A stretch of 64,000 nucleotides of DNA from an uncultured archaeon (GCA_903842985.1 CAIMOB010000014.1:14897-78896), one strand, 5' to 3'. Numbered from the stretch's first letter, positions 2,409 to 31,369 are shown. Translations and numbers: made by a program. Notes: generated from the letters alone by a model not told the origin.

Positions 2409-3806
2409 ATGGCCATGGGGGAGCAGTATCTTGGAAATATGCAGTTCACGGAGCGTGTTAAAGAAGAGGCAAACATAGTTGAATTAATAGGGCAGTATGT
2501 CAAGCTGAAAAAATCAGGCAAAAGCTATGTCGGGCTTTGCCCTTTCCACGATGAGAAAACACCTTCTTTTCACGTGACTGAAAATCCCAAATTATACTAC
2601 TGCTTCGGCTGCGGCGAAGGCGGAGATGTCATTGGTTTTTTCATGAAGAAAGAAGGCATGATATTTCCCGAAGCAAGGGATTATGTTGCAAGGGAATCTG
2701 GGATACCGGTTCCAGTTTTCAAAAGGCAATACAAGGGCACTGTCTTAAACACCAGGGATGCGCTTGGAATTGCGCAGGAATTTTTTTCAAGAAACATAAA
2801 CAATCATGAAGCAGCAGCGTACTGCATGGAAAGGGAGCTTGACGAGGCAACAATAAAGCAGAGGGGCATTGGCTATGCTCTAAACAACTGGCATGCGTTG
2901 AAAAATAACCTTCTGGGCATTGGATTCAAGCTCGAAGACTTGGTAAGCGCAGGGCTTGTTGGGCAGAAGCGCGACTCGCCAGCAGAGTCAAGGAACCCTG
3001 ATGACTACTATGATTTTTTCAGGAACAGGCTCATGTTCCCGCTGAGGGACAGGTTCGGCCTGCTTGTCGGGTTTGCAGGAAGGGCGATTTCAAGCGAAGA
3101 CGAGATAAAATACCTTAACACAGTTTCGCAGACGAGATTCGGGAAGACATTCTACAACAAGAGCGAAATTTTGTTCGGGCTGTCTGAAGCAAGAAATGCA
3201 ATAAGGGAGACAAAGAAAGTGCTCTACACAGAGGGCTACATTGATGAAGTATCTGCCCGCAAAATCGGGATGGAAAATGTTGTTGCTTCTGGCGGAGTGG
3301 CATTTACGCAGAAGCAGGCAAAGATACTTCGCGATGTCGGCGCTGAAGAAATTATTTTCATCATGGACATGGATGAGGCAGGAATAAGAGCTGCAAAAAA
3401 GGCAGTGCAGGTTGCCTATGCCGTGGGGTTGACCCCGCTTCTGGCGTCGATAAGCAATAAAGATATTCAAAGCAATGAAGAGCTCAGAGGATATGGAAAA
3501 ATAGACCTTGATGTATTGGCAAGGCATTATCGCGATCCTGATATGGTAATGGCTTCGCTGACAATAGGCGACGTTATTGAATTTGTACTGAAAACTTCTG
3601 AAAAACCCAAGGAGCCTGAAGCGCAGAATAAATTACTGGAAGAGATAGTGAGCTACTTTTATCTTTTGCCTGCAGGAAGAAAAATGCTGTGGATAAACAA
3701 GGCAGCAAAAGAGCTTGGGATTCCCGAGGATATTGTGCAGGTAAAATATTTTGAAAGGCTGAAGCAGTCTGTTGTTCCAGAGAGAGGATGTTGCAAGGCG
3801 CGCTGA
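2409..3806 (+). CDS. dnaG: bacterial-type DNA primase DnaG (CHC2 zinc-binding domain plus TOPRIM RNA-polymerase domain)
   Basis: CPFHDEKTPSFHV...YYCFGCGEGGDVIGF is the classic DnaG CHC2 zinc finger. The TOPRIM signatures are YTEGYIDEVS (E-G) and FIMDMDEAG (DxD). The archaeal exosome-associated DnaG lacks this zinc finger. Confidence 0.8.
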   Translation: MAMGEQYLGNMQFTERVKEEANIVELIGQYVKLKKSGKSYVGLCPFHDEKTPSFHVTENPKLYYCFGCGEGGDVIGFFMKKEGMIFPEARDYVARESGIPVPVFKRQYKGTVLNTRDALGIAQEFFSRNINNHEAAAYCMERELDEATIKQRGIGYALNNWHALKNNLLGIGFKLEDLVSAGLVGQKRDSPAESRNPDDYYDFFRNRLMFPLRDRFGLLVGFAGRAISSEDEIKYLNTVSQTRFGKTFYNKSEILFGLSEARNAIRETKKVLYTEGYIDEVSARKIGMENVVASGGVAFTQKQAKILRDVGAEEIIFIMDMDEAGIRAAKKAVQVAYAVGLTPLLASISNKDIQSNEELRGYGKIDLDVLARHYRDPDMVMASLTIGDVIEFVLKTSEKPKEPEAQNKLLEEIVSYFYLLPAGRKMLWINKAAKELGIPEDIVQVKYFERLKQSVVPERGCCKAR

Positions 3807-4263
3807 GTTAAAAATTCTTGCAGAGAATTACATTATCGGCCTCCTGACGCACCCAGTGGAGTATATCAAGCCATTTTTTAGGATAATACCGCCGGAAAGC
3901 TCGTTTTTTTCGCCGGAGCTCAGGGAGGTCTATAAAATAATAATTGAGGAGACACCGCAGGAGTTGCCGCTGAAATCACCGTCAAACCACCAGACAGATT
4001 TTGTGGAGGATGATAAAATCGAGAAAGCGTTCAACCATCTGCGAATGAGGTACAAGGAGAAGAAGCTCAAGGCATTTCCAGCAAACCTGATACGCCGGCT
4101 GATGAATGGGGCGCCGAATGATTTTGAGAAGACAGCAACAACCCTGTTCCATATAGCAAAAGAAGACAGGAGAGCCAGGAAGCTGGAGGAGCTCATAAGG
4201 GCCAGCAGGGAATCAGACACAGAAACAGCTGAAAAAATCTCAACAGAGCTGCTGGAGATGTAG
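3772..4263 (+). CDS. hypothetical protein; possibly the detached C-terminal (helicase-interaction) domain of DnaG
   Basis: A 163-aa ORF that starts 35 nt before the primase stop in another reading frame. Combined with the primase it totals about 628 aa, close to full-length DnaG. A frameshift or split gene is plausible. Confidence 0.4.
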   Translation: MFQREDVARRAELKILAENYIIGLLTHPVEYIKPFFRIIPPESSFFSPELREVYKIIIEETPQELPLKSPSNHQTDFVEDDKIEKAFNHLRMRYKEKKLKAFPANLIRRLMNGAPNDFEKTATTLFHIAKEDRRARKLEELIRASRESDTETAEKISTELLEM

Positions 4264-4264
4264 C

Positions 4265-6313
4265 ATGGCTGAAGAATTTGTTTCTATGATTCGCAATGGC
4301 AAAGAAAGTAAATGCAAAATCCAGTCCCTCGCAACAGTTAAAAAGAGGGTTGAAAAATTTTTAGCTGACAATGAGCTTGGCCCCAAAGACCCGATTAACA
4401 AGGTGCAGCTCAGAAGCGCAGACCAAAATTTGTTTTATCAGCTATGCCTTCACAGTTATCTTCTTTCAGGCAAGATGAACGCAACTCCTGCACTGCTTAA
4501 AATGGGATTCAGCACGCCTGTGAAAAGCGATTATGAAATGTCCACTGTCCAGGTTGAAGAATACATCAGGCAGGCGATACCGAAGGAGACTGCTGAGGAA
4601 ATATACAGCGGACACAGGAGGGTGTACCTGAAAAAGCATTTTAGGAACTGCGGCAAGCTGGTGTGGCAGGCATACCGCGGCTGCACAGCCAACGGCAGGT
4701 CGGATTTCAGGAGAGGGAGGCTGGTGGAAATAATAAACAGTCTGTATCCTGACCTTCAGGAAAAATACAACGGCAAAAAGCTCTATCCGCTTCTTCGGGA
4801 AAGAAGGCTTACAGAAAGCTACCTGCATGACAATCTAAGAAAACTGTATTTTGACGAAAAAAGCATTTCAAATTCAGGGCTGCGCGCCCAGCCAAACGGA
4901 AGAAAAATGGTTTATGCAATTGGATGCTCCTCTGCAGACAGGCAGATGGAGCTTTTCGAGAATGAGGCTAATTTCATGAAAAAGGCAGCCAGGCTGATGG
5001 GCATAAAGGGGCTGTCGCACAGCGACCTGTGCATGGATGGACAGGATGCAACGACCTGCATCGGAAACATAGCAGAAGGGCAGCTTTTGTTTTTGCTGGC
5101 TGCTGTGATGAAGTACGACCCCAAGTGCAGGGCAATGGGCAGTGAGTTCAGGGAAATATTCGGCTCAGAGATACACGAAATCTTTTCAAAAAATGAGATA
5201 GACAGGGTGGCGCTTCCAGGCAGCCCAGACGAGTTCTTTTCTGACGGCAGGCTGATATCAGCCAAAGGGGACCTTCTTCTGGAGGTGAAGGTGCAGCAGT
5301 CGCTTGACCGCCGCGGAGTTCCGAATGTCATAAAGAAATACGAAAAACAGAATTACTGGGCAGACGGCGGGAAAATAGACAGGAAAATCATGCTCATCTA
5401 CACGCCTGACGAGCGTCTCAGGAACAACCTGGCGAACAGCGAGCAGTTCACACTGATTGCAGGAGAGCAATTTTCAGAGTTTTATTCCAAAGCAATAGAA
5501 TTAATCAGGAAAAATGAGCCTGGGTTCTTCTGCTCAGCAAAAATCCCAGTCAGCTCGGACACGCTGCTTCATATTAATGACATTGTCTGCGGAAAGCCCC
5601 ATCTGCTGCTGGAGAGAAACAAAAGATGGATGAGGCAGTGGGCAGCTAAAATGCTCAGCGAGAACTACGAATGCCTGCTCAGCGGAGAGAGGGTTCCCGG
5701 CAGGCAGAAGTTTGACTATGAATACATTGCGCCGTTTGAGGATTTCAGAAATTTTTACGGAAAAAAAGCAGACTTCACACTGGAAGAAGACTGCCTGATT
5801 CTGGACCTGGAAACAGCGGGGCTTAACAAGGCAATTGAGCCGATAATCCTGATAGGAATGGCTTACCAGCAGGATGGGAAAATGCAGACGCATGTGCTTT
5901 TTTCCAGGAACCCGAGCGAGGAAAAAAAGGCGCTGCAGGACTTCAAGCGCATAAGCAGCAGGCATAAAAAAGTTGTGACTTTTAACGGCGAGCCCTTTGA
6001 CATTCCATATCTGAGAAAAAGGATGATTGTCAACAGGGTGCTGCCGGATTTGAACATTGAGAACATAGACCACTATCCTAATTTCAGGAAATACGCCCAG
6101 TCTGAGCAGTTCCCAAAGTCAGGGCTGAAGATTTTTGAAAGAAACCAAATCCATAAAAAAAGGGAGAAGGATGTTGATGGAAGCGAGATTCCTGAGATAT
6201 ACTACAACTTCATCTACGGCAGGGAGGATTATCTTATTCCATCAATGATTTCCCACAACCAGCATGACTTGATAACGCTTGCGATGATGCATAAGCTGCA
6301 GGGGAAATACTGA
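4265..6313 (+). CDS. large nuclease-like protein: central PD-(D/E)xK-like motif plus C-terminal RNase H-like (YprB/DnaQ-like) 3'-5' exonuclease domain
   Basis: The C-terminus carries ILDLETAGL ... VTFNGEPFDIPYL ... H..D, a DEDD/RNase-H-like exonuclease signature. Mid-protein, GDLLLEVKVQ...LIYTPDE resembles the D...E-x-K motif of restriction-endonuclease-fold proteins. No Walker A motif is visible. The start codon directly follows the previous stop. Confidence 0.6.
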   Translation: MAEEFVSMIRNGKESKCKIQSLATVKKRVEKFLADNELGPKDPINKVQLRSADQNLFYQLCLHSYLLSGKMNATPALLKMGFSTPVKSDYEMSTVQVEEYIRQAIPKETAEEIYSGHRRVYLKKHFRNCGKLVWQAYRGCTANGRSDFRRGRLVEIINSLYPDLQEKYNGKKLYPLLRERRLTESYLHDNLRKLYFDEKSISNSGLRAQPNGRKMVYAIGCSSADRQMELFENEANFMKKAARLMGIKGLSHSDLCMDGQDATTCIGNIAEGQLLFLLAAVMKYDPKCRAMGSEFREIFGSEIHEIFSKNEIDRVALPGSPDEFFSDGRLISAKGDLLLEVKVQQSLDRRGVPNVIKKYEKQNYWADGGKIDRKIMLIYTPDERLRNNLANSEQFTLIAGEQFSEFYSKAIELIRKNEPGFFCSAKIPVSSDTLLHINDIVCGKPHLLLERNKRWMRQWAAKMLSENYECLLSGERVPGRQKFDYEYIAPFEDFRNFYGKKADFTLEEDCLILDLETAGLNKAIEPIILIGMAYQQDGKMQTHVLFSRNPSEEKKALQDFKRISSRHKKVVTFNGEPFDIPYLRKRMIVNRVLPDLNIENIDHYPNFRKYAQSEQFPKSGLKIFERNQIHKKREKDVDGSEIPEIYYNFIYGREDYLIPSMISHNQHDLITLAMMHKLQGKY

Positions 6314-6387
6314 CTGAGAATTGCCTGAACACAGCAGTTTTCGTCGGGGCTGGTGACAAAACCTGCAGGAAATATCTCCGTTGACAT

Positions 6388-7269
6388 GTGCATATTAAAT
6401 CCACAAATCTTATATACCACTTCTGCACGAAACCGGCCATGGTTAAAGCACTAATCGATCAGCTTGAAAAAATTTTAAATAATAAAGGCTTGCCCAAAAA
6501 AGAGTATTTTGAGCTTATATTTGACACGCTTCTAAGCATTTACCTAAAGAAGAATTACCTTCCTTACGCAGACCAGGCTAAATCAAAAAAAGAATCAGGA
6601 ACAGAAGACGGGAATTTATTCTCAGCAATTCTTGCTTATCTGCCGGACATAAGGGACCCCAGGTTCATAGATGACAAAATTTATGACAAGATGCCTGTTT
6701 TTGAAAGGCTTGAAGACATTGACTTTGACAAGCATATTGAACGATTGTCATTAAAATCCCACGACGGCGCAATTATTTTTGATGATAATTATATCTCAGA
6801 CAGGTACATTGTTTTCAAAAATTTGTCGAATACTGCAATAAAGGTTATCCAGGACAGGGTTGGAGAAACAGAAGCGAAAAAAATCAGGCTTTTGTACGAC
6901 ATTTTGCCTTATTTTGCTCCAAAAACATTTTCAGACCCAAGCGGAAGAGGGGAAATCCAGGCTGGTGCAAAAAGCGAAACAGCTTTTGAACTGCCTCTTG
7001 CAATAGATGGTGCAGTTAGTTTTATGCTGAAGAGCACTGTCTTCAAAAACAATCTGGGAAAAGTCATAATGTGCGACCATTTTGGCTTAAGTTTGGAGGG
7101 CTATCTTGACAATATCCCAAATCTGGATGAAATTTACTATTTGGACAAGGAAAAAAATATTGTAATAATAAAAGAGCATTATCAGTATGATCCAGAGCTA
7201 AGAATAGTTGTGCCATTCAAAAAAGAGATAATAAAACCAAGTTATTTGAATCTGCCTAAGGCTGCTTAA
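6388..7269 (+). CDS. hypothetical protein
   Basis: A 293-aa ORF. The real start may be the internal MVKALIDQLEK. No family recognised. Confidence 0.45.
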   Translation: MHIKSTNLIYHFCTKPAMVKALIDQLEKILNNKGLPKKEYFELIFDTLLSIYLKKNYLPYADQAKSKKESGTEDGNLFSAILAYLPDIRDPRFIDDKIYDKMPVFERLEDIDFDKHIERLSLKSHDGAIIFDDNYISDRYIVFKNLSNTAIKVIQDRVGETEAKKIRLLYDILPYFAPKTFSDPSGRGEIQAGAKSETAFELPLAIDGAVSFMLKSTVFKNNLGKVIMCDHFGLSLEGYLDNIPNLDEIYYLDKEKNIVIIKEHYQYDPELRIVVPFKKEIIKPSYLNLPKAA

Positions 7270-7277
7270 CTTAAAAA

Positions 7278-7688
7278 TTATTTAATTCTGGAAATATCCC
7301 CGTCAATAACAACCGGCTTTACAGCTTCAATCTCAGTTCTGTAATTCATGTCAGGGATTGGGTTCCAGAGGAATATCTTCTGGTTCAGGACATGGGCAAA
7401 TCCGATTTCCATCAGCGTGTTTCCGCCAATATAATTCTTGACATTGTTCTTGTCCAGATTCATGACAAGAAGCGCATCAGCGCCCTGCATTGCTTTCCAG
7501 AAAACGCGGATTGCGTCCCTGTTGTATTTTTGGTAAAGCTTGATTTTCTCCAGTTCCTCTTCTGTTTTGCCTACCAGCGCCTTGTGCAGGTCTGTTACAA
7601 ACGCATCATGGCCCAGCTTTCTCAGCTTGTCGCGTATTTCAAGAATTTTTTCAACAAACTGCATGGAGCCTGCTATTCCGATTCTCAT
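7278..7688 (-). CDS. nucleoside 2-deoxyribosyltransferase-like / DNPH1 (Rcl)-family protein
   Basis: MRIGIAGSMQF... and ...GGNTLMEIGFAHVLNQKIFLW match the Rossmann-like layout of the deoxyribosyltransferase/Rcl family (conserved E in T-x-x-E-x-G). I trimmed the start to the internal Met (MRIGIAG). Confidence 0.5.
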   Translation of the reverse strand: MRIGIAGSMQFVEKILEIRDKLRKLGHDAFVTDLHKALVGKTEEELEKIKLYQKYNRDAIRVFWKAMQGADALLVMNLDKNNVKNYIGGNTLMEIGFAHVLNQKIFLWNPIPDMNYRTEIEAVKPVVIDGDISRIK

Positions 7689-7689
7689 T

Positions 7690-8037
7690 TTACCTGAACA
7701 CAACCTGCCCTTTTGTGAATTTTGAGACATCTGATTTTGTTATGTTTACAAAAGGACCGACTTCCCTGTTTATCTTGTTGTACAATCCCAGCCCTTTCTG
7801 CGTCAGCCTCAGCTGCCTGCTGCTGTAATTGAGATATTTCTTGTTTTCCAAATCCTCAAGGTTCTTGTACAGTGCCCTGATTGATTTGTCGCAGATTTTC
7901 GCCTTCTTCGCCATTTCAATGAAGCTTATTTTCGAGACAGACATTGAAAGCGGAGCATCAGAAAATCTTTTGTTGCACTCCTGCAGGTAGTGGCACAGGG
8001 CATAGAGAACTATTTTGTGCTTTTTGCTGACCCCCAT
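7690..8037 (-). CDS. putative winged-helix DNA-binding protein
   Basis: A small 115-aa protein with an HTH-like segment (SVSKISFIEMAKKAKICDKSIRALYKNLEDLENKKYL). It sits divergent from an intergenic region rich in palindromes. Confidence 0.45.
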   Translation of the reverse strand: MGVSKKHKIVLYALCHYLQECNKRFSDAPLSMSVSKISFIEMAKKAKICDKSIRALYKNLEDLENKKYLNYSSRQLRLTQKGLGLYNKINREVGPFVNITKSDVSKFTKGQVVFR

Positions 8038-8228
8038 TTTACATAGTTAATTATTTGGATTTTTTAAAGGTTTCCCTAGAACACGTTTCCAGCTTTGCTG
8101 GAAACTAGTCAATTATGACACTTGTAAAATAGTCTCTATCCGATCAAACGCTTTCTCTTCTAGAGAAAGGGTTTGTTTTAAAGGTTTCTTTGGAAATATT
8201 TATATACAAAGACGCCCTAAATATATGT

Positions 8229-8522
8229 ATGAAAAGGTTAATTCTGCTGGTTCTTGTGGTTTCGCTAGTCCTGACAGGCTGCGCGAATACAAGCAATAAT
8301 ATAACTGGCGCAGCAGTTGGCGCGCCATGCGAATGCTCTGATTCAGATGGATTGAATCCAAACACAGCAGGAATAACAATCATTAATTCTGATGGCAAGA
8401 CAATCACCAGGCATGACCAATGCATTGCAAATTTTGTCACAGAATATTACTGCGAAGACTGCCAGCTCCTGAGCAAGAACTTCAGGTGCGAGAACGGATG
8501 CAATGAAGGCGCTTGCCAGTAA
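8229..8522 (+). CDS. small Cys-rich secreted lipoprotein (lipobox LTGC)
   Basis: MKRLILLVLVVSLVLTGC signal peptide with a lipobox, followed by a Cys-rich domain. TATA-like TTTATATA at 8199-8206 sits about 25 bp upstream, suggesting a leaderless transcript. The ORF-track start at 8190 is probably too early. Confidence 0.55.
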   Translation: MKRLILLVLVVSLVLTGCANTSNNITGAAVGAPCECSDSDGLNPNTAGITIINSDGKTITRHDQCIANFVTEYYCEDCQLLSKNFRCENGCNEGACQ

Positions 8523-8525
8523 TTA

Positions 8526-9284
8526 CTATTTTCTCATCTGCACAATGCCATCATATCTTTTATAAAACACAATTACAAGAACAGCTGCAAGCGTTCTTAT
8601 AAAACTAAATTTAAACAGTCTCCTTATTAAAAAATTAAGCCTGGGGATTTTATTGGGTTTATCATACAATGCAAAATTTATGTATTCTGCGCGGGGGTAT
8701 ACTCTAAATTCCCTAAAACCTGCCTTCTTTGCAACTTTAACAATCTTTTTAGGAGGCATATCCTTCTCAGTAACACCAAACCTTTTAACAGCATTAACTG
8801 CGTTTATAGTCTTTGAATGGCCCGCGCCAGGTTCAGATACAATGCAAATCCCATTAGGTTTAAGCGAGTTATAAGCTGTTCTTAATGCCTTTTCTTCATT
8901 TACTGCATGATGCAAAGAATCTATAAACACAACACAGTCAAAGTTTGAATAAGAATTAATATTTTTTTCATAATCCCATTGAACAAATCTCAGATTTTTA
9001 AGTTTCTCCTGTGTTTTTTTTGCGGCAGCATGCTTAATTGATTCAGATGATATATCCACCCCAACAACATCATAGCCTCTCTTTGCAAAAAATATGCTTG
9101 TCCACCCTGTTCCGCAGCCCATATCTAATACTTTTGCAGGAGGATTCGGCAATAGAGACATAATTGCGCCCATCTCTGCCATTAATGCTCCGCATGCATC
9201 ATCGGAAAACGGCTTGTTTATTGAGTGCATGACTCCGCATTTTCCAATATTTTTCAGATAATCTATTTCTCCCTGCTTTGTCAT
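8526..9284 (-). CDS. class I SAM-dependent methyltransferase
   Basis: Motif I VLDMGCGTGWTSIFFAKRGYDVVGVDIS. I trimmed the start to Met55 (MTKQGEIDYL) because the longer ORF-track version would read through the tRNA gene. Confidence 0.7.
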   Translation of the reverse strand: MTKQGEIDYLKNIGKCGVMHSINKPFSDDACGALMAEMGAIMSLLPNPPAKVLDMGCGTGWTSIFFAKRGYDVVGVDISSESIKHAAAKKTQEKLKNLRFVQWDYEKNINSYSNFDCVVFIDSLHHAVNEEKALRTAYNSLKPNGICIVSEPGAGHSKTINAVNAVKRFGVTEKDMPPKKIVKVAKKAGFREFRVYPRAEYINFALYDKPNKIPRLNFLIRRLFKFSFIRTLAAVLVIVFYKRYDGIVQMRK

Positions 9285-9329
9285 TTTAAAATACTTCTGC
9301 CCCCAAAATGTTATATGATTTAAGTATGA

Positions 9330-9403
9330 TAGCCCCGGGCGGATTCGAACCGCCGTCCCGAGATCCAAAGTCTCGGATGATTGACCGGCTACACTACGGG
9401 GCT
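9330..9403 (-). tRNA. tRNA-Gln (anticodon UUG)
   Basis: I folded it by hand: AGCCCCG acceptor stem with an A1-U72 pair typical of archaeal tRNA-Gln, anticodon stem CGAGA/UCUCG with loop CUUUGGA (U33, anticodon UUG), T-arm GGCGG-TTCGAAT-CCGCC, discriminator A. CCA is not encoded. Confidence 0.8.
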
Positions 9404-9472
9404 GTATAAAAGACAGATATTGCCTTATTTTTATAAATTTTCGCAATATTTATATATTAATGCTATTTAAGC

Positions 9473-10321
9473 GTGTATATGTCTCATAAACTTATTCAGA
9501 GGAATTTCATAGTTATCTGGATCATTGTATTGCTTTCTCTGGCGCTGGTTTTCACGCTGATTCTTACAGGCTGCCAAAAAACAAAGGTAATAAGCGCAAA
9601 AGAAATCCCAAAGGAAACTGAGAAGCCTGCTGCGCCGGCGCAGCCGAATACAACAGTAAGCACTAAAAACGCAAGCACTGCAAAAAATGTTTCTGCAGAA
9701 GCGAAGCCAGCGGTGACTGCCACAGCTGATTCGTCATCAAAAAAAGACCTGAATCTTGCAGGTGTTTTAGCAGATACTATTTATCCAAAATCCAATGAAA
9801 TTTTTGAAGTGACACTCACTGTTGAAAATGCCGGGCTTGAAAAAATAGATTCGTTCGAATATCTGGTCAATATAATGAAAGACGGCGTGCTTCAAAAATT
9901 TGACAGGGGGGAGAGGAATGAAGGGCTGGTTGCTGGCGGAAAAGTAAAGCTAAGAAGCGAATTTTCACTTTCATCAGCTGGCAAATATACAATTGAAGCC
10001 AGTGTAGACCCCAGCAATGCTGTGAAGGAGTTCGATGAGTCGAACAACGGCAAAACAACTACAATTACTATTGTTGCGCCTTCTGCAGAAACAACGCAGG
10101 AAAATGAAGCGCCTGCACCTGCGCCGTCTGGAACATGCACAGACACTGACAACGGAAAGATTTACACATTGAAGGGAAAGTGCACAGACAGCGGGGCATA
10201 CAGCGCAGGCTTCAATGACTTTTGCATTTCAGCCACAAGGCTGGTTGAAATGTACTGCAAGTCAGGCGAGTGCGTTCAGGAGGAACATGCCTGCAGCTGC
10301 AGTGAAGGTAAATGTAGTTAA
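9473..10321 (+). CDS. secreted lipoprotein with CARDB-like domain and C-terminal Cys-rich module
   Basis: Signal peptide ending LILTGC (lipobox), then an S/T/A/P-rich linker. A CARDB-like segment follows (TLTVENAGLEKIDSFEY...ESNNGKTTTITI). The C-terminal Cys-rich module is paralogous to the one at 8229-8522. TATA box about 30 bp upstream. Confidence 0.6.
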   Translation: MYMSHKLIQRNFIVIWIIVLLSLALVFTLILTGCQKTKVISAKEIPKETEKPAAPAQPNTTVSTKNASTAKNVSAEAKPAVTATADSSSKKDLNLAGVLADTIYPKSNEIFEVTLTVENAGLEKIDSFEYLVNIMKDGVLQKFDRGERNEGLVAGGKVKLRSEFSLSSAGKYTIEASVDPSNAVKEFDESNNGKTTTITIVAPSAETTQENEAPAPAPSGTCTDTDNGKIYTLKGKCTDSGAYSAGFNDFCISATRLVEMYCKSGECVQEEHACSCSEGKCS

Positions 10322-22256: not shown

Positions 22257-25200
22257 TTATTTCCTCTCCTCAAATGGATTAACAAACTTGATTTTCTTGA
22301 ACTCCTTTTCATAAATCTCAGGCATCTTCTCCATTGTGAGTATTCTTTTCTTCCATACCTTGTGTGTGTAATGCGTGAGCGCGAATGTGATGTCCTTGCA
22401 TAGCTCCATAGGCAGATTGTATGTACCTTGTATCAGCTCAGCCTTCCACTCAAATTTTTTCTCAAGCTCGAATGCAACAAGATTTTTCAGCTCTTTGTAT
22501 TTTTCGCAGTTCTCCCTTAGAGTGTAAATCTTCCTGTATTCCCTTATCTTGTTCTCGCTGATTAATTTTTCAATTGTTTTGCTGTCTGCTACCAATACTT
22601 TTTTTGGCCAGAAAAGTATGAATAATGAAATCAACAAAGTAATTAATTTGATAATGATTAATGTGATGAAAATTATTTTAATTGTTTCGCTTCCGCCAGA
22701 ATTTGGAGCTGGGCTCTCTTTTTCTGGCGCTTTCTCAGGAGATTTTTCCTCTGTTTTTGCTTCAGCTAATTTTTTCTCCTCTTTTGCAGGTGTTCTTATG
22801 CCAGTTTCGTTTTCCTTTGGTCTTGTTATCAGTGGCGCAACGCCTCCGCCTTTCTTTTCTGTTGTTCCGCCGCTTGGCGCAGGCGTGCTGCTTGGCACAG
22901 CAACTGTTAAATTGTAAATCAAAGAAGCGCCTGTATTTCCAAGCTCATCTGTGCAGTTTACGCTCCAGTTGTACTTTCCATTGGTCAGTGTTCTTGTGAA
23001 GCTCTGCGCCATGCCTTTTGTTATTGTTGTGCCTGTTAAGATTATTGCTTTATTTATTATTAACGAGCAGTTCGAGATGCTGCTTGCATCGCTTACATTG
23101 TAATTGAATGTTGTCGATGCAGTTGTCCTTTTTGTGTTGTTTGCAGGCGACTCAAGCGAAACATCCGGCGCAGTTGTGTCCCTTATTGTTATGTTTATTA
23201 TTATTGAGCGCCTGTTATTCAGCGTGTCATTGACAGAGATGTTCAGCCATTTTGTTCCTATTGGCACTGATGTGCTCTCTTCTATTACGCCCGATGTTTT
23301 GTTTATCTTGAAGTAACCAGTGTCATTAATCCAGTACTGGCTTATGCCACTTGGGTCTGTCGCATTTACTTCATAGTAAAATATATCTCCTGCCTCAAGC
23401 GTCTTGTTTTTAGGCGTCTCTACCCATACGGGAGGGGTTGTGTCAACAATAAAGAATATCTGCTCTGAAGCGATGTTTTTTGAAGTGTCATTTGCATAGA
23501 TGGTTATGTTATTCAATCCTTCCTGACCTAAGAATGTTATGTTCTGGCACGAAGGAAGGTCCAGCCTGCTTCCTGTCACATTCACATACCAGCACTGCGA
23601 GACAGCTGTCTCGTCGCTGACAGTGTAGTTGAGAGTTATTACATTTGAATTGTGAAGCGAGTTGTTCTGCGGCAGAGAGACATCCAGAATAGGCGCTGTT
23701 GCATCAAGTGTGAAGACGATTGGGGTATCTGTATTTGCAGCGATGCTCTGCTTTGGGTTAACTGAGATGTTGTATACCTTATTATAATTTGCCGGAGTGA
23801 AATTCAGTTTTGCATTCACGAAACCATAGATATTAGTGTAGCCATACCATATGCTTTTGCTCCCGTTTGTCACATTCACCAGCCTGTTCACAGCAAAGCT
23901 TCCGTTTGTGTAGTTTACAATGACAGGATAGTACCTTAATAATTTGCCAGTGTACACCCTTACATTGCTTGGCATGTCAACATAGCCATAAATTTTTGGT
24001 GTATTGTTATATACTCTTACAGAGTTTGTGATGTTTGATTTTGGAAGCGTAAAATTAACTACCGAATTTCCCATAATATATGTAAGGTCATTAAAAATAC
24101 AATTCTTGAATTCGTTCTTTGAATAATTCAGTGTGTACATTCTGTTTTTGAAAGTAGAATTCTCAACGAAGTTGATGGAAGAATCTTTGAAATATGCATA
24201 ATAGAGTGCAGTAGAATTAATTATGGTGTTTACTGAATAACCCCCAAAATGCAATTGATCATATGTTTTAATATTTTTGATTAGGTGATTCTTGTTTCCT
24301 GACATATGCAGCTCAGACCCATTCAACAGGCTGTTTGTCAAGTTTAGATTGCCATAGACCCAAATTTTAAAATAGAATAATATATTGCTTCTGATAACAG
24401 AATCTTTTATATTTAGGCTGGCATTTTCACTGACATATATATTTTGATTGCCCGGCGCCTGAATTAGTGTGAATGTTGTGTTTTCAAGCGTCAAGGTGCT
24501 TGTATTTTCCAAGATCAGCGTCTGGTTTTTGAAATATAATATAGTATTGTTGCATATAACATCTGCATTCTCAATTGTCCAATTCGTGCCTGGCGGAGGC
24601 AGCCCGCAGCCAGGAAGAACATAAATATCGTCAGAAGTTTTGAAATATTCATAATTCGTTTCATTGCAGCTTATATTGTAATAGTAAGGTCCTGCGATTG
24701 TGAAGTTTCTTCTGAACTCAAACAATTTTGTTGATGCATTGTAATTCATCTGATTATTTAGGTCAGAGAAGCTTATGTTGCAGCTTCCTGCTGTTACTGG
24801 CGCTCCTGAAGTTCTGTTTGAGTAGTTTGCATAGAATGTTATTTCTTCGTGCGTTGTTCTGTTCATCCAGCCGCCTTCTGGGTCGTTTTCGTCAAATATT
24901 TTTAATTCTGAATTCGTTCCTGCGCTGTAATTCGAGAAACCGGCAACTTCAAATGTGAAATTCTCGCTATCATATCCTCTGCTTTTGCAGTTGGCGCAGA
25001 CAGCCCCGTTCTTTAGGGCAATAGGCGTTTTCTTGAAACTTAGGCTGTAGATTGTCAGATTCGCAGGCTTGTTAAATTCAGAATATTTGCTTGCGTTCAT
25101 ATAAACTGAATTAGCTCCAATCCTGAACGCCTCCGAAGCCCTTGTCAGGTCAGTTGTGCTTCCGAACTTTACCTTGCCATTCTCGGATTTCACTGAATCT

Positions 25201-26957
25201 TCTGTTGAATTTACCTGCAGGACAGCATTAACTGCCTGAAGAACATCTATTCGCGGGAATGTCAGGCCGGTTCTTGAAATGAAAACATTGGTTCTTGTCT
25301 TCAGCAGCTCTCTTACAACACTTGGAGTCGCATTTTTATGGTTAAGCAGCTTTTCCTTCTGATAAATCAATGCAGCAGCGCCTGCGACATGAGGAGTTGC
25401 CATGGATGTTCCGTGTTCTGTACGATAACCAGAGGCGCTGCAAAAAGTGCAGCTGCCTTTTGGCACAGTTGAATTTATCAAGTTTCCCGGCGCAAGCAGG
25501 TCGAGTATTCCTGCAGTTTTTGTGAAAAAGGAAATTGTGTCTACTGTTGCATTTATCGTAGAGCCGTCATTGGAAGAACCAACAGAAGTTGCATTTGGAG
25601 CACAGGCAGGGTATATAATTCCATTATTTCCTGAATCATCAACCACATTGTTTCCAGAAGCAGCCACAACAAAAATATTATTTGCAACAGCAAAATCAAT
25701 ATCATCTGCTATCAGCCCCCCATCAGGCGCTCCAGTGCCATGGCATTGTGTGTAACGATTGGTGTAATCTCCGTTGTCCCCCAGACTCATCGTTATTATG
25801 GAAATATTGTATCTGCTTTGGTTGTTAATGCACCAGTCAATGGCTGCAGCAGTAACTGACAGCGAGCCAGTCCCGTTTGAGTTCAATGCTTTGACCGCAA
25901 TAATCTTTGCATCAGGTGCAACACCTTTTAATTTACCATTTGCAGCAACAATCCCTGCAACGTGTGTTCCGTGGCCGTTGTTATCATAGGGATTATTGTT
26001 TTCAGAAGTGCAGTTTTCATCTGCGCAGAAATTATGCCCGCCAATTATTTTTGAATTGGGGAAGCTGTTTGAGCCGCCGAAATCAGAGTGATTGTATGCA
26101 ATTCCTGTATCAATGACACAGACGCCAACGCCTTTTCCTGTCAGGTTTATCCCGTTTACTTTCTCGCCCCACACCTGGTTTGCCTTTATCAGCGGAACAC
26201 TTTCGCTTAAGCTTATATGAACTGGCTTGTCCTCAACTATTTTTTTGATATCCTTATTTTCCTCTAATTTTTTAAGCTCGTCTTCAGTGACGCTCAATGC
26301 AAGCGCATTGACATTTGAGTATTTTTGCTTGATTTTCGTTTCATTTTTATTAAATGTCTTCTCAATCTCCTTCTGCGCAATGCCTATGTTTTCCCTTCTT
26401 AGTTTATTTTTGTCGCCTGAAACAGCAAACTTCTTTCCTTTCGGCTCGTTTAGTACGACAATAACATTAAACCTTTTCTCTTTCCTGGTTTCGCTCAGAT
26501 TCTTTTCAATCTCTGGCTTCCTTTTTTTCTCAATCCATGTTAAGTTCTGCACAACATAGCTTGCCTTTTTCAGCTCAAGTGTTCCATTTAATTTTATGAT
26601 TAATTCAAAGCTTGTCTGGTTGAATTCGTCGATTGAGCAGGTTTCTTTGCATTTGTCTGCAAAATTTTCAGAACTGCTGGCTATCAAATATGTTCTGTTT
26701 GCAGATTTAAGATAAATCTCAGCACTTCCGTTAACATTTCCAGTCAGCTTGAAGCTTGTCAATCTTGGAACTCTTGGCGATTCAAGGTTAACTGTCAAAT
26801 TCATTGAGGAATTCAATGTCAAATTAATGTCTTTTTCATAGCTTAAATCATTGACATTCTGCCAGAACAATCCAGTTATATTTGGATTAGAGAATGCAAA
26901 GACTAGCGCAACTATCAAGACAATGCCTATGCCCACTTCTTTTAGCTTTAGCCTCAT
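22257..26957 (-). CDS. giant cell-surface subtilisin-like (S8) serine protease/adhesin with C-terminal transmembrane anchor and cytoplasmic tail
   Basis: Signal peptide. The S8 catalytic triad motifs are VIDTGIAYNHSDF (Asp), HGTHVAGIVAAN (His) and GTSMATPHVAGAAALI (Ser). Long N-glycosylation-sequon-rich beta domains follow, then a T/P/E/K-rich linker, one hydrophobic helix (IIFITLIIIKLITLLISLFILFW) and a charged cytoplasmic domain of about 110 aa. Confidence 0.8.
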   Translation of the reverse strand: MRLKLKEVGIGIVLIVALVFAFSNPNITGLFWQNVNDLSYEKDINLTLNSSMNLTVNLESPRVPRLTSFKLTGNVNGSAEIYLKSANRTYLIASSSENFADKCKETCSIDEFNQTSFELIIKLNGTLELKKASYVVQNLTWIEKKRKPEIEKNLSETRKEKRFNVIVVLNEPKGKKFAVSGDKNKLRRENIGIAQKEIEKTFNKNETKIKQKYSNVNALALSVTEDELKKLEENKDIKKIVEDKPVHISLSESVPLIKANQVWGEKVNGINLTGKGVGVCVIDTGIAYNHSDFGGSNSFPNSKIIGGHNFCADENCTSENNNPYDNNGHGTHVAGIVAANGKLKGVAPDAKIIAVKALNSNGTGSLSVTAAAIDWCINNQSRYNISIITMSLGDNGDYTNRYTQCHGTGAPDGGLIADDIDFAVANNIFVVAASGNNVVDDSGNNGIIYPACAPNATSVGSSNDGSTINATVDTISFFTKTAGILDLLAPGNLINSTVPKGSCTFCSASGYRTEHGTSMATPHVAGAAALIYQKEKLLNHKNATPSVVRELLKTRTNVFISRTGLTFPRIDVLQAVNAVLQVNSTEDSVKSENGKVKFGSTTDLTRASEAFRIGANSVYMNASKYSEFNKPANLTIYSLSFKKTPIALKNGAVCANCKSRGYDSENFTFEVAGFSNYSAGTNSELKIFDENDPEGGWMNRTTHEEITFYANYSNRTSGAPVTAGSCNISFSDLNNQMNYNASTKLFEFRRNFTIAGPYYYNISCNETNYEYFKTSDDIYVLPGCGLPPPGTNWTIENADVICNNTILYFKNQTLILENTSTLTLENTTFTLIQAPGNQNIYVSENASLNIKDSVIRSNILFYFKIWVYGNLNLTNSLLNGSELHMSGNKNHLIKNIKTYDQLHFGGYSVNTIINSTALYYAYFKDSSINFVENSTFKNRMYTLNYSKNEFKNCIFNDLTYIMGNSVVNFTLPKSNITNSVRVYNNTPKIYGYVDMPSNVRVYTGKLLRYYPVIVNYTNGSFAVNRLVNVTNGSKSIWYGYTNIYGFVNAKLNFTPANYNKVYNISVNPKQSIAANTDTPIVFTLDATAPILDVSLPQNNSLHNSNVITLNYTVSDETAVSQCWYVNVTGSRLDLPSCQNITFLGQEGLNNITIYANDTSKNIASEQIFFIVDTTPPVWVETPKNKTLEAGDIFYYEVNATDPSGISQYWINDTGYFKINKTSGVIEESTSVPIGTKWLNISVNDTLNNRRSIIINITIRDTTAPDVSLESPANNTKRTTASTTFNYNVSDASSISNCSLIINKAIILTGTTITKGMAQSFTRTLTNGKYNWSVNCTDELGNTGASLIYNLTVAVPSSTPAPSGGTTEKKGGGVAPLITRPKENETGIRTPAKEEKKLAEAKTEEKSPEKAPEKESPAPNSGGSETIKIIFITLIIIKLITLLISLFILFWPKKVLVADSKTIEKLISENKIREYRKIYTLRENCEKYKELKNLVAFELEKKFEWKAELIQGTYNLPMELCKDITFALTHYTHKVWKKRILTMEKMPEIYEKEFKKIKFVNPFEERK

Positions 26958-27328: not shown

Positions 27329-30300
27329 TCAACAAGCTGGTCCGCCCACTAACCAAGAATCATGGCAGACGCATTTTAAATGGCGGAGATAGCTTTTAAT
27401 TGTGTCATTAAACTCCGCTGCAGTTGACAGCGGAATTGTTTTTACGTATGTCCCTCCAGATGTTTCTTGACAATAGTCAACGTTGTAATTCAATGCATCA
27501 ACCTGCGCTTTTGTAGAAATGTTATTTCCTGGCGTCATATATTCATCCCCTATCTGGGTATTAAGGTCGTCATAGCGGTCCCATACAGCATTGATAGCTA
27601 TTGGCACTATAATCAATGTTGTATTGACATCATACCATGGATCACCCCAGTCAGTTGGCAAAAACTGGAAATAATCCCTGTAAATTGGATCAGCAATTAC
27701 ATCAGCTTCATTTTCTGTCATGTAAACAGTTACATTTTCGTATCGAACAGCTTTGTTCCCTGCCTTGTCTGTTGCAGTTGCTTTTGTAACATAATGCCCG
27801 CTTACATTATATCTAATATTTATCTCTCCCATATCGCTGCCAGGCCCTGAGTAATCAACATCATTGTCTTTTATGCCGTCTCCGCTGGAGTCTGTGTTTA
27901 TGTCTTTGTCTAAGGTAACGTTTATGCTGGCGTCTGTTCTGCCTTCTATGTACACCATCTGCGCAGCAAGTGTTCCTGGCTGCGGCGGATCAAGCGCACT
28001 ATAATAAAACTTATATGGTCCTTCCATTCCTTTGTACTCAGTTAAGTAGCCTCCAATATAACCATAGATCATTTGACCAAAATTAGGCGGTGTTGTGTCC
28101 CTTATGATAAAGAAATCTCCAAGCTTATGCATCTTCCCCCATCTCAAATTATCATATGCATGAATTTCATATCTTCCAGGCCCCCAGTTGCAGGGTATGT
28201 AAACCTTGTAGTTCTTGTTGTGCTGTTTATTGTCGTTTGGCAGGAACAGGTTCTCAGAGGATTTGCTCTGGTTTCCGCAGTAGACAGTTTTTCCGTTTAC
28301 AGCACAGGGAATTGGAGCGCTTTCAACACCGCTTATTGCTGTATGGTTCTCTACAATAAACGTGACAGTTGTGTCATTGTAGCCGTTGTTTATGCCGAAC
28401 ATGTTGAAATTAACATATTCGTTGCAAGTGTAGTTATTATTTCCTTCATACCTTCCTGAATAGATTATGTGCCCATCAACATTCAGGTTCTTGTAGTATG
28501 TTGAGTTCTGGTCAACATCTGAATTGTGCGAACCTGTGTCGCACCAGTCATCATCAAAGTCATTCCAGTTCTTTATGCCGTCATGGTCGCAGTCATCTGT
28601 GTAGGGAGTTGTGTTCTGCGGAGGCCAGGTGTAATTGTACAATTCAACAAGTATGACAGCATCGTTGTAGTCAAAGTCAGGCATGATGCTCTTTTTCACG
28701 TCAAGGTCCTCGAAATAAATTCTCCAGGTGTCATAGTCAAGCCTGTCAACTATTGCATAGCTCGAGTTTGAATAATGGTCATAATCCATTTTCGTTGGGC
28801 AGTATCCTTGCAGGCAGTGCACCCTAATGTACAGCAAAATCTCTGTCAGCGCATTTATCTTCTGCCCATTGTTGAGCACAACAGACTTTCCTGTTGAGGT
28901 GTTCGCGACAAGCATGGCACTGTAGGGCTTTGCAAGGCGAAGGTCTGATTTCAGGCCAGCCTCTGCTTTTTCAAAAAGGACTCTTACGTTGCCTGTTTCA
29001 GGCAGTATTATCAGTTTGTCCGCTGTTGGCTGAGTGCTCATCTTGTGGTCAAAATCCTTTTCATCGGTTCCCTCAATGACAATATTTACATACTTCGTGC
29101 TTGCTGTTGAGAATCCATAATAAGCGCCGTTTGCGTCTGTCACAGCGTCAGGAATAGGCTTCGGCTGCAGTGCAGAGTAATTTCCTGTCATGTTCTCAGC
29201 ATTCCATACTGTGTTGTTGTAAAAGGATATGTTTTCTCCTGCAATTGGCAGGCCGGTGTCTGTGTCAAACACCCTTCCATAGACATTCGGAATCCAGTTT
29301 GAGCAGCTTGGGTAAGTGCCATTCCAGTCAAGGCTGTGAAAGTTGCATACATCCACTGTGCTGTTGCTTCCGTCATAGCATTCGGAATTTACATGGCATG
29401 ACTGATGTGCATGAAGGATTATTGACTTTGAAACATTTTCAATGCCGTCGTTTGCATTCAAAGTTATGTTATAATCTCCGTATTGCGTTGAATTAGGCAT
29501 CCAAATGATTGTTTTATTTATGAAAACAGCTCCAGCAGGAAGGTTCTGCACAGAAATGTTGACTGTCCCATTATCGGGGTCGCTGACATTTATATGTATA
29601 TTCGCGTTGTACGTGCTCCAGGCTTCGCTGTCGCCCGTGAGTATTACAGGAGGAGCGTTCATGTATGTGTTGTTTGCGTAGACATTATTTGAGCTGTTTG
29701 CCCTGTATCCGCCGAAATTGAGCAGGTTTTTTGTTATAGAATTTCCTATTGAATTATAGCCAAGCAAAATTGCAGTTGCACTGTTGTGCGTAACATTGTT
29801 TTTGTAGACTATGTTGTTCTTGTTTCCAATCCCTCTTGATGGAACAATGTCATTCATCAGCAGAACGCCCTCAAATGCATTATTCTTCACGTTGTTGCTT
29901 CTTATCTCGTTGCTGCTTGAGTTGAAAAGCGCGATTCCAGGACCTAAATTGTTCAGGACATTGTTATTAACAATATAATTTAGCCCTGCGCTTCCGACGT
30001 AGATTCCTGAATAAAATCCTCTTTTGCTTTCAGTCACATCAAATCCGCCGTTTCCTGTCAGGTTGTTGCCAACAACATAGTTGTGCACTGCATTGTTGTT
30101 ATTGTTTCCAGTAATCTGTATTCCTGCATTTGAATTGTAGTTCACAATGTTGTTTGTGACATTGTTATAGTCATTGCCGTTCTGGAGCGTGATTCCGTAT
30201 TGCTGGCTTTCAATAATATTATTCTTTATTACATTGTATTTGCAGCTTGTTGCATCATCCAATATCTCTGATGGAACAAGATTAATTCCTCTTTTGGTAT

Positions 30301-31369
30301 TGAATCTTAAGGTATTTCCTGAGATTGTGTTATGAGAAGCATCAACAAGCTCGATGCCAGCAGTTGTGCTGTTTGTTATGATATTATTGGTTAATATATT
30401 GCTGTTGGAATTTTCAAGATAGATTCCTTTGCTGTACTTCTTAATATTGCAGTTCTTTATTGTGTTGCCATTGTAGCCGTTGCTGTAAATTCCATACCCA
30501 GCGCCATTGCCGACAATTACTGAATTATTACAGTCCAACACAATATTGTTTGCTCCAATCTTCAGTATTCCGTCGCCATTCGCGTCGTTTGTGTTGTATG
30601 TTCCTGCGCAGAGAACTGCGCTTACATTAACAACTAAGTCATCAACAACATGCGCGCACGGCTTCCCGCTTTCCTGTGAAGTGTAATTCGTGAAATGCTG
30701 GACAGTGAATGTCAAATCCCCGTTTGTATAGCTGATAATATTGCAGTCAGTGCATTTGCTGTCGTCTTGTAAGATAACAGGATTGCTGAAAGACAAGCCA
30801 TACAATGTTAATGTTGCCGGCTTGTTCAGCTCCGGCAGATTATTTGAGTCAACTGAAATAAAATTATTGGATATCTGGACATAAGCATCAAGGTTTGTAT
30901 TTGAAATATCAACAGACTGCCCGCTGAAATCGATTTTTCCACTGTTCGGGACTTCAAGCACCAAATCATTGACAGAAGTTAAATCGCTTTCCTGCGAAAA
31001 ATCAGTTGTGTCGCCTGAAAACTCTGTCGCGTCAGGAATGTTTGAGCTTGAACCTGAATTGCTTGAACCGCCTGAACTGCCTCCTGAAGAGGTTTTCTTG
31101 CTTGTACTTGAGCCTGCGAGAATATTATACGTAAACTTTGTTTGGTTTTGGGTTACAGCTGTCTGATTTTTGCTTGGCTCTTGAACTTTATTCTGTGAAC
31201 TTTCATTTACAACCGCAGGAGTCTCATTCGCTTCTGCTGCCTTCAATTCCGAAGAAGCTGTTCTGTCATAAATCACATTCCCTGTAATCACACCTTTGCT
31301 GCAGCCGTAGAGAAATATAGTTAAGACTGCCAGAATCAATACGCCCCATTTTTTATTTTTCTGGTTCAT
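27329..31369 (-). CDS. giant secreted lipoprotein with right-handed parallel beta-helix (NosD/PbH1-type) repeats
   Basis: Signal peptide ending LYGC (lipobox). Repeated N-x-I-x-x-N/beta-helix segments follow (NNIITNSTTAGIELVDASHNTISGNTLRFNTKRGINLV and many more). C-terminal Cys-rich end. Confidence 0.7.
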   Translation of the reverse strand: MNQKNKKWGVLILAVLTIFLYGCSKGVITGNVIYDRTASSELKAAEANETPAVVNESSQNKVQEPSKNQTAVTQNQTKFTYNILAGSSTSKKTSSGGSSGGSSNSGSSSNIPDATEFSGDTTDFSQESDLTSVNDLVLEVPNSGKIDFSGQSVDISNTNLDAYVQISNNFISVDSNNLPELNKPATLTLYGLSFSNPVILQDDSKCTDCNIISYTNGDLTFTVQHFTNYTSQESGKPCAHVVDDLVVNVSAVLCAGTYNTNDANGDGILKIGANNIVLDCNNSVIVGNGAGYGIYSNGYNGNTIKNCNIKKYSKGIYLENSNSNILTNNIITNSTTAGIELVDASHNTISGNTLRFNTKRGINLVPSEILDDATSCKYNVIKNNIIESQQYGITLQNGNDYNNVTNNIVNYNSNAGIQITGNNNNNAVHNYVVGNNLTGNGGFDVTESKRGFYSGIYVGSAGLNYIVNNNVLNNLGPGIALFNSSSNEIRSNNVKNNAFEGVLLMNDIVPSRGIGNKNNIVYKNNVTHNSATAILLGYNSIGNSITKNLLNFGGYRANSSNNVYANNTYMNAPPVILTGDSEAWSTYNANIHINVSDPDNGTVNISVQNLPAGAVFINKTIIWMPNSTQYGDYNITLNANDGIENVSKSIILHAHQSCHVNSECYDGSNSTVDVCNFHSLDWNGTYPSCSNWIPNVYGRVFDTDTGLPIAGENISFYNNTVWNAENMTGNYSALQPKPIPDAVTDANGAYYGFSTASTKYVNIVIEGTDEKDFDHKMSTQPTADKLIILPETGNVRVLFEKAEAGLKSDLRLAKPYSAMLVANTSTGKSVVLNNGQKINALTEILLYIRVHCLQGYCPTKMDYDHYSNSSYAIVDRLDYDTWRIYFEDLDVKKSIMPDFDYNDAVILVELYNYTWPPQNTTPYTDDCDHDGIKNWNDFDDDWCDTGSHNSDVDQNSTYYKNLNVDGHIIYSGRYEGNNNYTCNEYVNFNMFGINNGYNDTTVTFIVENHTAISGVESAPIPCAVNGKTVYCGNQSKSSENLFLPNDNKQHNKNYKVYIPCNWGPGRYEIHAYDNLRWGKMHKLGDFFIIRDTTPPNFGQMIYGYIGGYLTEYKGMEGPYKFYYSALDPPQPGTLAAQMVYIEGRTDASINVTLDKDINTDSSGDGIKDNDVDYSGPGSDMGEINIRYNVSGHYVTKATATDKAGNKAVRYENVTVYMTENEADVIADPIYRDYFQFLPTDWGDPWYDVNTTLIIVPIAINAVWDRYDDLNTQIGDEYMTPGNNISTKAQVDALNYNVDYCQETSGGTYVKTIPLSTAAEFNDTIKSYLRHLKCVCHDSWLVGGPAC

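Follow-up and report, generated by a model that had tools for sequence, protein, structure and literature searches.

What does an archaeon do with a protein that appears to carry two different nuclease domains and whose gene begins one base after the stop codon of a primase gene? The question is raised by a 64,000-nucleotide stretch of DNA from an uncultured archaeon (GCA_903842985.1, CAIMOB010000014.1:14897-78896; the whole stretch is referred to here as the window), and within it by an open reading frame at positions 4265-6313 on the + strand, which we call gene X. The initial annotation, made from the sequence alone, placed a 682-amino acid protein here; coordinates, ATG start, and length are exactly as it gave them. 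An identical 682-residue sequence is on record in NCBI and ENA, and nothing about the reading frame points to an artefact. The window itself is archaeal, as it encodes an archaeal/eukaryotic-form ribosomal protein S15 (990-1544; NF006331, E = 1.9e-58) together with Cdc6/Orc1, an aIF5B-type GTPase, and an anaerobic ribonucleotide reductase. As described below, X represents a new family of known nuclease folds whose association with a bacterial-type primase, itself new, is strictly conserved in DPANN archaea.

Domain architecture and active sites of protein X

The features of gene X are as follows, all on the + strand.

4265-6313, +: gene X, the putative double nuclease, with the domain order helical N-terminal domain, PD-(D/E)xK domain, helical bridge, DEDDh exonuclease
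4265-5029, +: N-terminal domain, residues 1-255, a beta-hairpin plus helices, without known relative
5030-5524, +: predicted PD-(D/E)xK (restriction-endonuclease-like) domain, residues ~256-420
5075-5077, 5243-5245, 5282-5284, and 5288-5290, +: codons of the predicted PD-(D/E)xK catalytic residues E271, D327, E340, and K342
5525-5779, +: helical bridge between the nuclease domains, residues 421-505 (helices 431-443 and 451-473, strand 486-490; predicted local distance difference test score, pLDDT, >90)
5780-6310, +: predicted DEDDh 3'-5' exonuclease domain (RNase_H_2, YprB/MrfB type), assigned from PF13482, matches to MrfB, and conserved residues
5804-5806, 5810-5812, 5999-6001, 6254-6256, and 6266-6268, +: codons of the predicted DEDDh catalytic residues D514, E516, D579, H664, and D668

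Homologues were gathered by an exhaustive HMMER search with residues 1-500 of X as the query against 1.84 billion cluster representatives. The family is small, with 57 representatives, mostly of 650-800 residues, 54 of which were aligned (mean column identity 14%). A word-index search, run with the single sequence and also with the 54-sequence profile, returned nothing beyond a fragment of the query itself, and a genome scan for further loci with an 11-sequence alignment and one peptide pattern returned few. All five clusters that carry an organism name (P0005/P0060, P0010, P0015, P0016, and P0022) belong to Candidatus Woesearchaeota, as do two loci from the genome collection; a third lies on a 9.8-kb contig of a metagenome-assembled genome labelled Methanosarcinales. 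The source names for these proteins are 'hypothetical' or 'ribonuclease H-like domain-containing'. RNase_H_2 follows the N-terminal region in 53 of the 54 aligned members, and no further Pfam domain recurs.

The C-terminal domain had been read in the initial annotation as an exonuclease of the YprB/PolB-exo type, and this assignment is borne out by profile, structure, and conservation alike. PF13482 (RNase_H_2) matches residues 511-676 with 88.9 bits (cut-off 22, E = 4.7e-25) and covers model positions 1-161 of 165, with weaker Pfam matches to the PolB-related exonuclease families DNA_pol_B_exo2 and exo1. The closest solved relative is MrfB (YprB; PDB entry 8un9), detected at E = 4.6e-9 when X alone is the query and at 5.8e-33 when the family profile is used. 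An AlphaFold2 model of X computed with the 54-sequence alignment (pLDDT 91.6, predicted template modelling score 0.82) displays an RNase H-like exonuclease fold with pLDDT >90 across this region, and a Foldseek search with the full model ranked MrfB 8un9 at the top, followed by the exonuclease domains of PolB, Pol epsilon, TREX, and RNase T. D514, E516, D579, H664, and D668 are retained in every sequence that has a residue at those columns (52-53 of 52-53). On these grounds the C-terminus of X is a DEDDh exonuclease of the YprB/PolB-exo type, with predicted 3'-5' activity.

The remaining 500 residues are recognised by none of the profile libraries searched, and the Foldseek search of the full model against the PDB picked up the exonuclease domain alone. 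A separate model of residues 1-505 (pLDDT 86) was used to see the fold that the full-model search had missed. It has the alpha-beta-beta-beta-alpha-beta core of the PD-(D/E)xK superfamily, with the putative catalytic residues in the canonical layout: the first core helix carries E271, strand 2 has D327 at its start, and E340-x-K342 lies on strand 3. The 'D...EVK' pattern from which a second, mid-protein nuclease fold had been proposed corresponds to D327...E340-V-K342. Among the 54 homologues, D327 and K342 are invariant (54/54 each), position 340 is Glu in 51 and Asp in three, and the upstream E271 is Glu in 51 and Gln in three. The proposed second fold is thus upheld by the model and by the conservation of E271, D327, E340, and K342, and the alignment finds both active sites conserved across the family. 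Structure prediction and profile searches gave two nuclease folds and no profile family for the N-terminal two-thirds of the protein. Taken together, conservation and modelling identify X as a predicted rigid multidomain protein with two nuclease folds, each with a conserved catalytic constellation. Some 500 residues of 'hypothetical protein' thereby gain a concrete domain assignment, and the N-terminal domain plus restriction-endonuclease-like region constitutes one of two new families for database curation.

The N-terminal domain has no detectable relative, and hhalign found no internal repeats in it. In one homologue (P0010, 805 residues, encoded at 7722-10139 of locus L002), an N-terminal extension resembles a duplicated first family module of ~90 residues, and the pattern 'LETYL..GLTREDII..IR....LYNDLGALAL' is present twice in the alignment. 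A role as a secreted, DNA-scavenging nuclease was considered and rejected, as the N-terminus of X does not look like an obvious signal peptide.

Linkage to a bacterial-type primase gene and a small divergent gene

The neighbourhood of gene X in the window consists of the following features.

2016-2378, -: gene for a small 'FFFY-motif' protein, divergent from dnaG; 120 amino acids from a TTG at 2378, the more likely start being the ATG at 2363
2409-3806, +: N-terminal 465 residues of a bacterial-type DnaG (CHC2 zinc ribbon, RNA-polymerase core, Toprim), from Pfam and TIGR01391
3772-4263, +: C-terminal 163 residues of the same DnaG in the +1 frame, from alignment to an intact DnaG
4254-4267, +: junction, read from the sequence, with GGAG at 4254-4257, the DnaG stop codon TAG at 4261-4263, and the ATG of X at 4265-4267

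The 465-residue primase fragment matches Zn_ribbon_DnaG, DNAG_N, and Toprim_2 in Pfam and scores 314.1 bits with TIGR01391 (dnaG), above the equivalog cut-off of 283.6. It aligns to residues 1-453 of the intact 611-residue DnaG of locus L001; the 163-residue fragment covers residues 465-606 of that DnaG in alignment and also aligns to the DnaG C-termini of L002, L004, and L003. The two fragments are separated by a frameshift that falls within 3780-3806, next to an (AG)4 run (3779-3786). It may stem from an assembly error or from programmed frameshifting, or mark a strain-level pseudogene. In the source annotation, too, the primase product has 465 residues (P0189). The start codon of X had been described as directly following a primase stop. 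The arrangement itself (TAG, one base, ATG) is as described; the stop codon, however, belongs to the C-terminal fragment of a frameshifted primase. With GGAG located 7 nucleotides upstream of the ATG, the junction is of the translational-coupling type, and equally tight junctions occur at other loci. A scan for bacterial-type promoters and terminators gave counts at chance level, with models that are bacterial and do not apply to archaea. A second interrupted dnaG is seen in one of the Woesearchaeota, where two assemblies of 99.45% identity (L002 ~6340-6345 and L004 ~4320-4345) both show the gene broken at residue ~170; at the interruption L002 has NN, and L004 reads through yet stays frameshifted.

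The initial annotation had also suggested looking for DnaG-like genes beside homologues of X. A bacterial-type DnaG adjoins X in 13 of 13 independent loci, comprising the window and twelve others (L001, L002, which is the same as L004, L003, the P0003 locus, L008, L010, L011, L012, L013, L015, L016, and L017), whose family members share only 19-36% identity with X. In 12 of these (the window and eleven others), dnaG lies directly upstream on the same strand, at distances from a 17-nucleotide overlap to a 19-nucleotide gap. The remaining locus, L016, has a split X at 4001-9017, with an 806-residue gene for the N-terminal and restriction-endonuclease-like domains and an adjacent 256-residue RNase_H_2 gene; its dnaG is inverted to a convergent orientation and still abuts, overlapping the end of the exonuclease gene by 4 nucleotides. 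That fission and rearrangement preserved the neighbourhood argues for a function. Moreover, pairwise identities of DnaG and X co-vary over 11 loci (Mantel r = 0.55, p = 0.001), and the two proteins have diverged in step to a mean identity of about 22-24%. Each contig carries a single copy of X.

The third conserved component is the small gene, which was found immediately upstream of dnaG on the opposite strand in all ten loci where this region was extracted (the window and nine others). The homologues in those nine loci are as follows.

L001 5723-6055, -: FFFY-motif protein
L002 5338-5784, -: FFFY-motif protein
L008 2607-2969, -: FFFY-motif protein
L010 1812-2141, -: FFFY-motif protein
L011 1692-2168, -: FFFY-motif protein
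L012 1440-1982, -: FFFY-motif protein
L013 1425-1991, -: FFFY-motif protein
L017 1425-1880, -: FFFY-motif protein
L016 9081-9506, +: FFFY-motif protein, divergent from dnaG though X has moved

The proteins, of 110-190 residues, are mutually related, have two motifs in common (FFFY, N-terminal; Y..YL, C-terminal), and were previously unannotated. No relative was found in Pfam or the PDB, and they form the second family for curation. One may speculate that the FFFY sequence is a short peptide-binding motif of the PCNA-interacting type. X is thus obligately linked to a bacterial-type primase gene and a small gene. Further out, the genes differ from one locus to the next and belong to the archaeal core, encoding ribosomal proteins S15, L15e, and S8e, EF-1alpha, RNA polymerase subunits, PCNA, SMC, an aminoacyl-tRNA synthetase, and a diphthamide synthase; no integrase or transposase is among the annotated flanking genes.

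A word-index search of a large protein collection places the window DnaG nearest to bacterial proteins, at 35-42% identity, many of them from Patescibacteria (Paceibacterota, Kaiserbacteria, Minisyncoccia) and Clostridia. Two loci of these bacterial relatives have the usual rpoC-dnaG-rpoD order. PF10410 is listed for many of the bacterial relatives; the X-linked DnaGs of the P0003 locus, L008, L010-L013, and L015-L017 list only Zn_ribbon, DNAG_N, and Toprim, with no DnaB-binding domain (PF10410/PF08278) recognised. Since the 163-residue C-terminal fragment of the window DnaG has no Pfam match, this protein too is without a recognisable DnaB-binding domain. A DnaB-family helicase gene (DnaB, DnaB_C) does lie by the dnaG-X pair of L011, just beyond the FFFY gene (135-1649, -); tblastn detected no DnaB in the 64-kb window or in any locus except L011, and the profile of the N-terminal region of X shows no relation to the DnaB of L011. 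L014 is a bacterial locus with the rpoC-dnaG-rpoD order, and its DnaG ranks among the closest to that of the window; a stand-alone PDDEXK_1 gene (7054-7827, +) and a stand-alone RNase_H_2 gene (~9503-9665, -) are located there within 4 kb downstream of dnaG. This may be a coincidence, and hhalign of the N-terminal profile of X against the PDDEXK_1 protein gave no specific relation.

A few features elsewhere in the window were also recorded. A tRNA-Gln(UUG) gene at 9330-9403 (-) overlaps the 5' end of the longest open reading frame of a class-I methyltransferase (8526-9446, -, TTG start), so the true start of the methyltransferase must lie downstream of the tRNA. Two large adjacent genes encode a 1566-residue subtilase-domain protein (22257-26957, -) and a 1346-residue beta-helix/NosD-like protein (27329-31369, -), both probably surface proteins. 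The Cdc6/Orc1 gene is located at 57260-58447 (-), because of which a replication origin may be nearby; cumulative GC skew is lowest at ~60-62 kb.

Possible roles of the X-DnaG pair

The adjacency of X and DnaG is suggestive of a primase-nuclease partnership, so far undescribed, that would act in DNA replication or repair. The reading that we favour, with confidence that is about evenly balanced, is that X is a housekeeping replication or fork-repair nuclease partnered with DnaG and not a restriction or defence enzyme. In Woesearchaeota-like DPANN archaea, X would serve as the dedicated partner of a bacterial-type DnaG gained by horizontal transfer. The dnaG and X genes would be co-transcribed and probably translationally coupled, with the FFFY gene transcribed divergently. 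The primase would then recruit X, probably by contact between the N-terminal domain of X and DnaG's atypical C-terminal domain. Within such a complex, the PD-(D/E)xK site might make structure-specific cuts in flaps or at primer-template junctions, and the DEDDh site could trim the 3' ends of DNA or of RNA-DNA that accompany priming. These activities may be called upon during lagging-strand maturation or at stalled or broken forks.

Acquisition of replication proteins from bacteria has precedent in these lineages, with Woesearchaeota and Pacearchaeota having obtained PolB (group B7) in this way (PMC7544198). DnaG is retained in all DPANN phyla, and the two-subunit PriS/PriL primase is limited to some of them (PMC8407392, PMC7414124). 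Three observations weigh against a housekeeping role with DnaG. A neighbour-joining distance tree did not group the X-linked DnaGs as one clade (bootstrap 11/100), and for that reason we do not claim a single ancient acquisition. The primase gene is frameshifted in the window and in L002/L004, such that the module may be dispensable in some strains if the shifts are not assembly errors. Finally, Fen1 and RNase H are reportedly kept in DPANN genomes, so that a dedicated primer-removal nuclease is not obviously needed.

In a more specific proposal, which we consider doubtful, the pair belongs to a hybrid replisome of Woesearchaeota-type DPANN archaea, in which a bacterial-type DnaG that was gained horizontally and has since lost its DnaB-binding domain primes the lagging strand together with X and with the FFFY protein as an adaptor, for instance to PCNA or MCM. 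X would handle primer or flap and 3'-end processing, and X and the FFFY protein would be lineage-specific inventions for DnaG. If correct, this would amount to a previously unknown primosome architecture in cellular life.

Several features of the locus could instead be explained if DnaG and X, sometimes with DnaB, were the replication module of a domesticated or mobile plasmid or virus, with X serving that element (in end processing or recombination-dependent replication, for example) and not the chromosome. The bacterial type of the DnaG, nearest to those of Patescibacteria and Clostridia, the DnaB helicase gene by the module in L011, the different position of the pair in every genome, and the many phage relatives of the exonuclease fold would all fit, as would the G+C content of 0.476 at 4001-6000 compared with a prevailing ~0.40 across the window. 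An equally raised G+C content is seen in the nrdD region, however, and DnaB is confined to the one locus. Just two or three genes are conserved, bordered by ribosomal, translation, or RNA-polymerase genes; neither capsid nor terminase genes accompany the missing integrases and transposases among the annotated flanking genes, and the in-step divergence of DnaG and X is what long vertical residence predicts. We regard this explanation as improbable. The same neighbourhood bears on the idea of an anti-virus or anti-plasmid conflict system, in which a Toprim/primase-like sensor or effector would act with a nuclease effector that destroys invading DNA. Here the neighbours are housekeeping genes and not defence islands, the module lacks a methylase, ATPase, or sensor domain, and the primase is a complete DnaG above the equivalog cut-off and not a bare Toprim nuclease. 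X had no significant match in PADLOC, the best being a 30-residue alignment to a generic DEDDh model (E = 0.008). We judge a defence role to be decidedly unlikely. Against both the mobile-element and the defence explanations stand a tightly packed operon with housekeeping genes on its flanks, its occurrence as one copy per contig, and two proteins that have diverged together.

A role in RNA metabolism deserves mention because archaeal DnaG is an exosome subunit (PMC4227792) and cluster-2 DPANN archaea are without the exosome subunit Csl4 (PMC7414124). A DnaG-like protein and a DEDDh RNase might form a unit that offsets their reduced exosome, and the DEDDh superfamily includes RNase T, RNase D, and oligoribonuclease, which are among the structural matches of X. 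The DnaG next to X is, however, of the bacterial primase type with a zinc ribbon and not of the archaeal exosome type, the exonuclease domain is most closely related to exonucleases that act on DNA (MrfB and the PolB proofreading domain), and PD-(D/E)xK domains mostly cleave DNA. An RNA-processing role seems very improbable to us.

Returning to a housekeeping partnership of X with the primase, its interest lies in the contrast with the accepted picture. The eukaryote-like PriS/PriL is regarded as the primase of archaeal replication, with archaeal DnaG assigned to the RNA exosome. Here, a complete bacterial-type DnaG is fixed in a DPANN lineage and tied to a nuclease with two predicted active sites and to a small protein. 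If the three genes work together, they would encode an undescribed primase-nuclease machine and would illustrate how symbiotic archaea with reduced genomes reassemble their core DNA metabolism out of components taken from bacteria.

Relation of X to known nuclease systems

The nearest characterised protein is MrfB/YprB of the Bacillus subtilis mitomycin repair pathway (PF13482, COG3359), with which X shares the domain family, the DEDDh residues, the RNase H-like fold, and a gene position beside a DNA-metabolism partner. MrfB has been shown experimentally to be a Mg-dependent 3'-5' DNA exonuclease used in repair, has a C-terminal tetratricopeptide repeat (TPR) domain, and works with the MrfA helicase (PMC11194089). 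In contrast, X has 500 additional N-terminal residues with a second predicted nuclease, and its partner gene encodes a primase. No TPR match was found by Pfam in X or any of the 54 members, X ending ~6 residues past the exonuclease domain, and no MrfA/YprA-type helicase (DEAD/DUF1998) is among the annotated flanking genes of the 13 loci. Given the lack of both the TPR domain and a neighbouring MrfA helicase, X is not an MrfB orthologue.

The domain order had been noted initially as unfamiliar. It is indeed absent from any characterised family, although the pairing of the two superfamilies is not without precedent, as Majorek et al. (2014) described PF13482 with a Cas4-like PD-(D/E)xK domain in the uncharacterised COG2251 (PMC3985635). 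Like X, COG2251 proteins ('predicted nuclease (RecB family)', DUF83/Cas4-like) have a PD-(D/E)xK domain followed by PF13482 in one polypeptide. PF01930 and PF12705 gave no match in X at E<=0.1 and none in family members at E<=0.001, and no RecB/Cas4-family NCBIfam model matches X. At the level of detectable sequence similarity, X is not a member of COG2251. Nucleases of the Cas4 type have four conserved cysteines that hold an iron-sulphur cluster. In the alignment of the X family no column exceeds 30% Cys, and this lack of conserved cysteines excludes X from the iron-sulphur nucleases of the Cas4/RecB type. With one giant-virus 'RNase_H superfamily protein', X can be aligned over 519 columns, beyond the exonuclease domain alone. 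The core fold and the E...D...ExK motif are those of PD-(D/E)xK endonucleases such as restriction enzymes, XPF-ERCC1, NucS, and Can2. The literature that we searched has no description of the X family, the FFFY protein, or an archaeal DnaG-nuclease operon, a search that is not proof of absence.

A functional analogy comes from mitochondria, where TWINKLE, the POLG exonuclease, and MGME1, that is, a protein of the DnaG lineage, a DEDD 3'-5' exonuclease, and a PD-(D/E)xK nuclease, cooperate to process flaps or primers and to remove linear DNA. Unlike X, these are separate proteins of a eukaryotic organelle, and we claim homology at the superfamily level at most.

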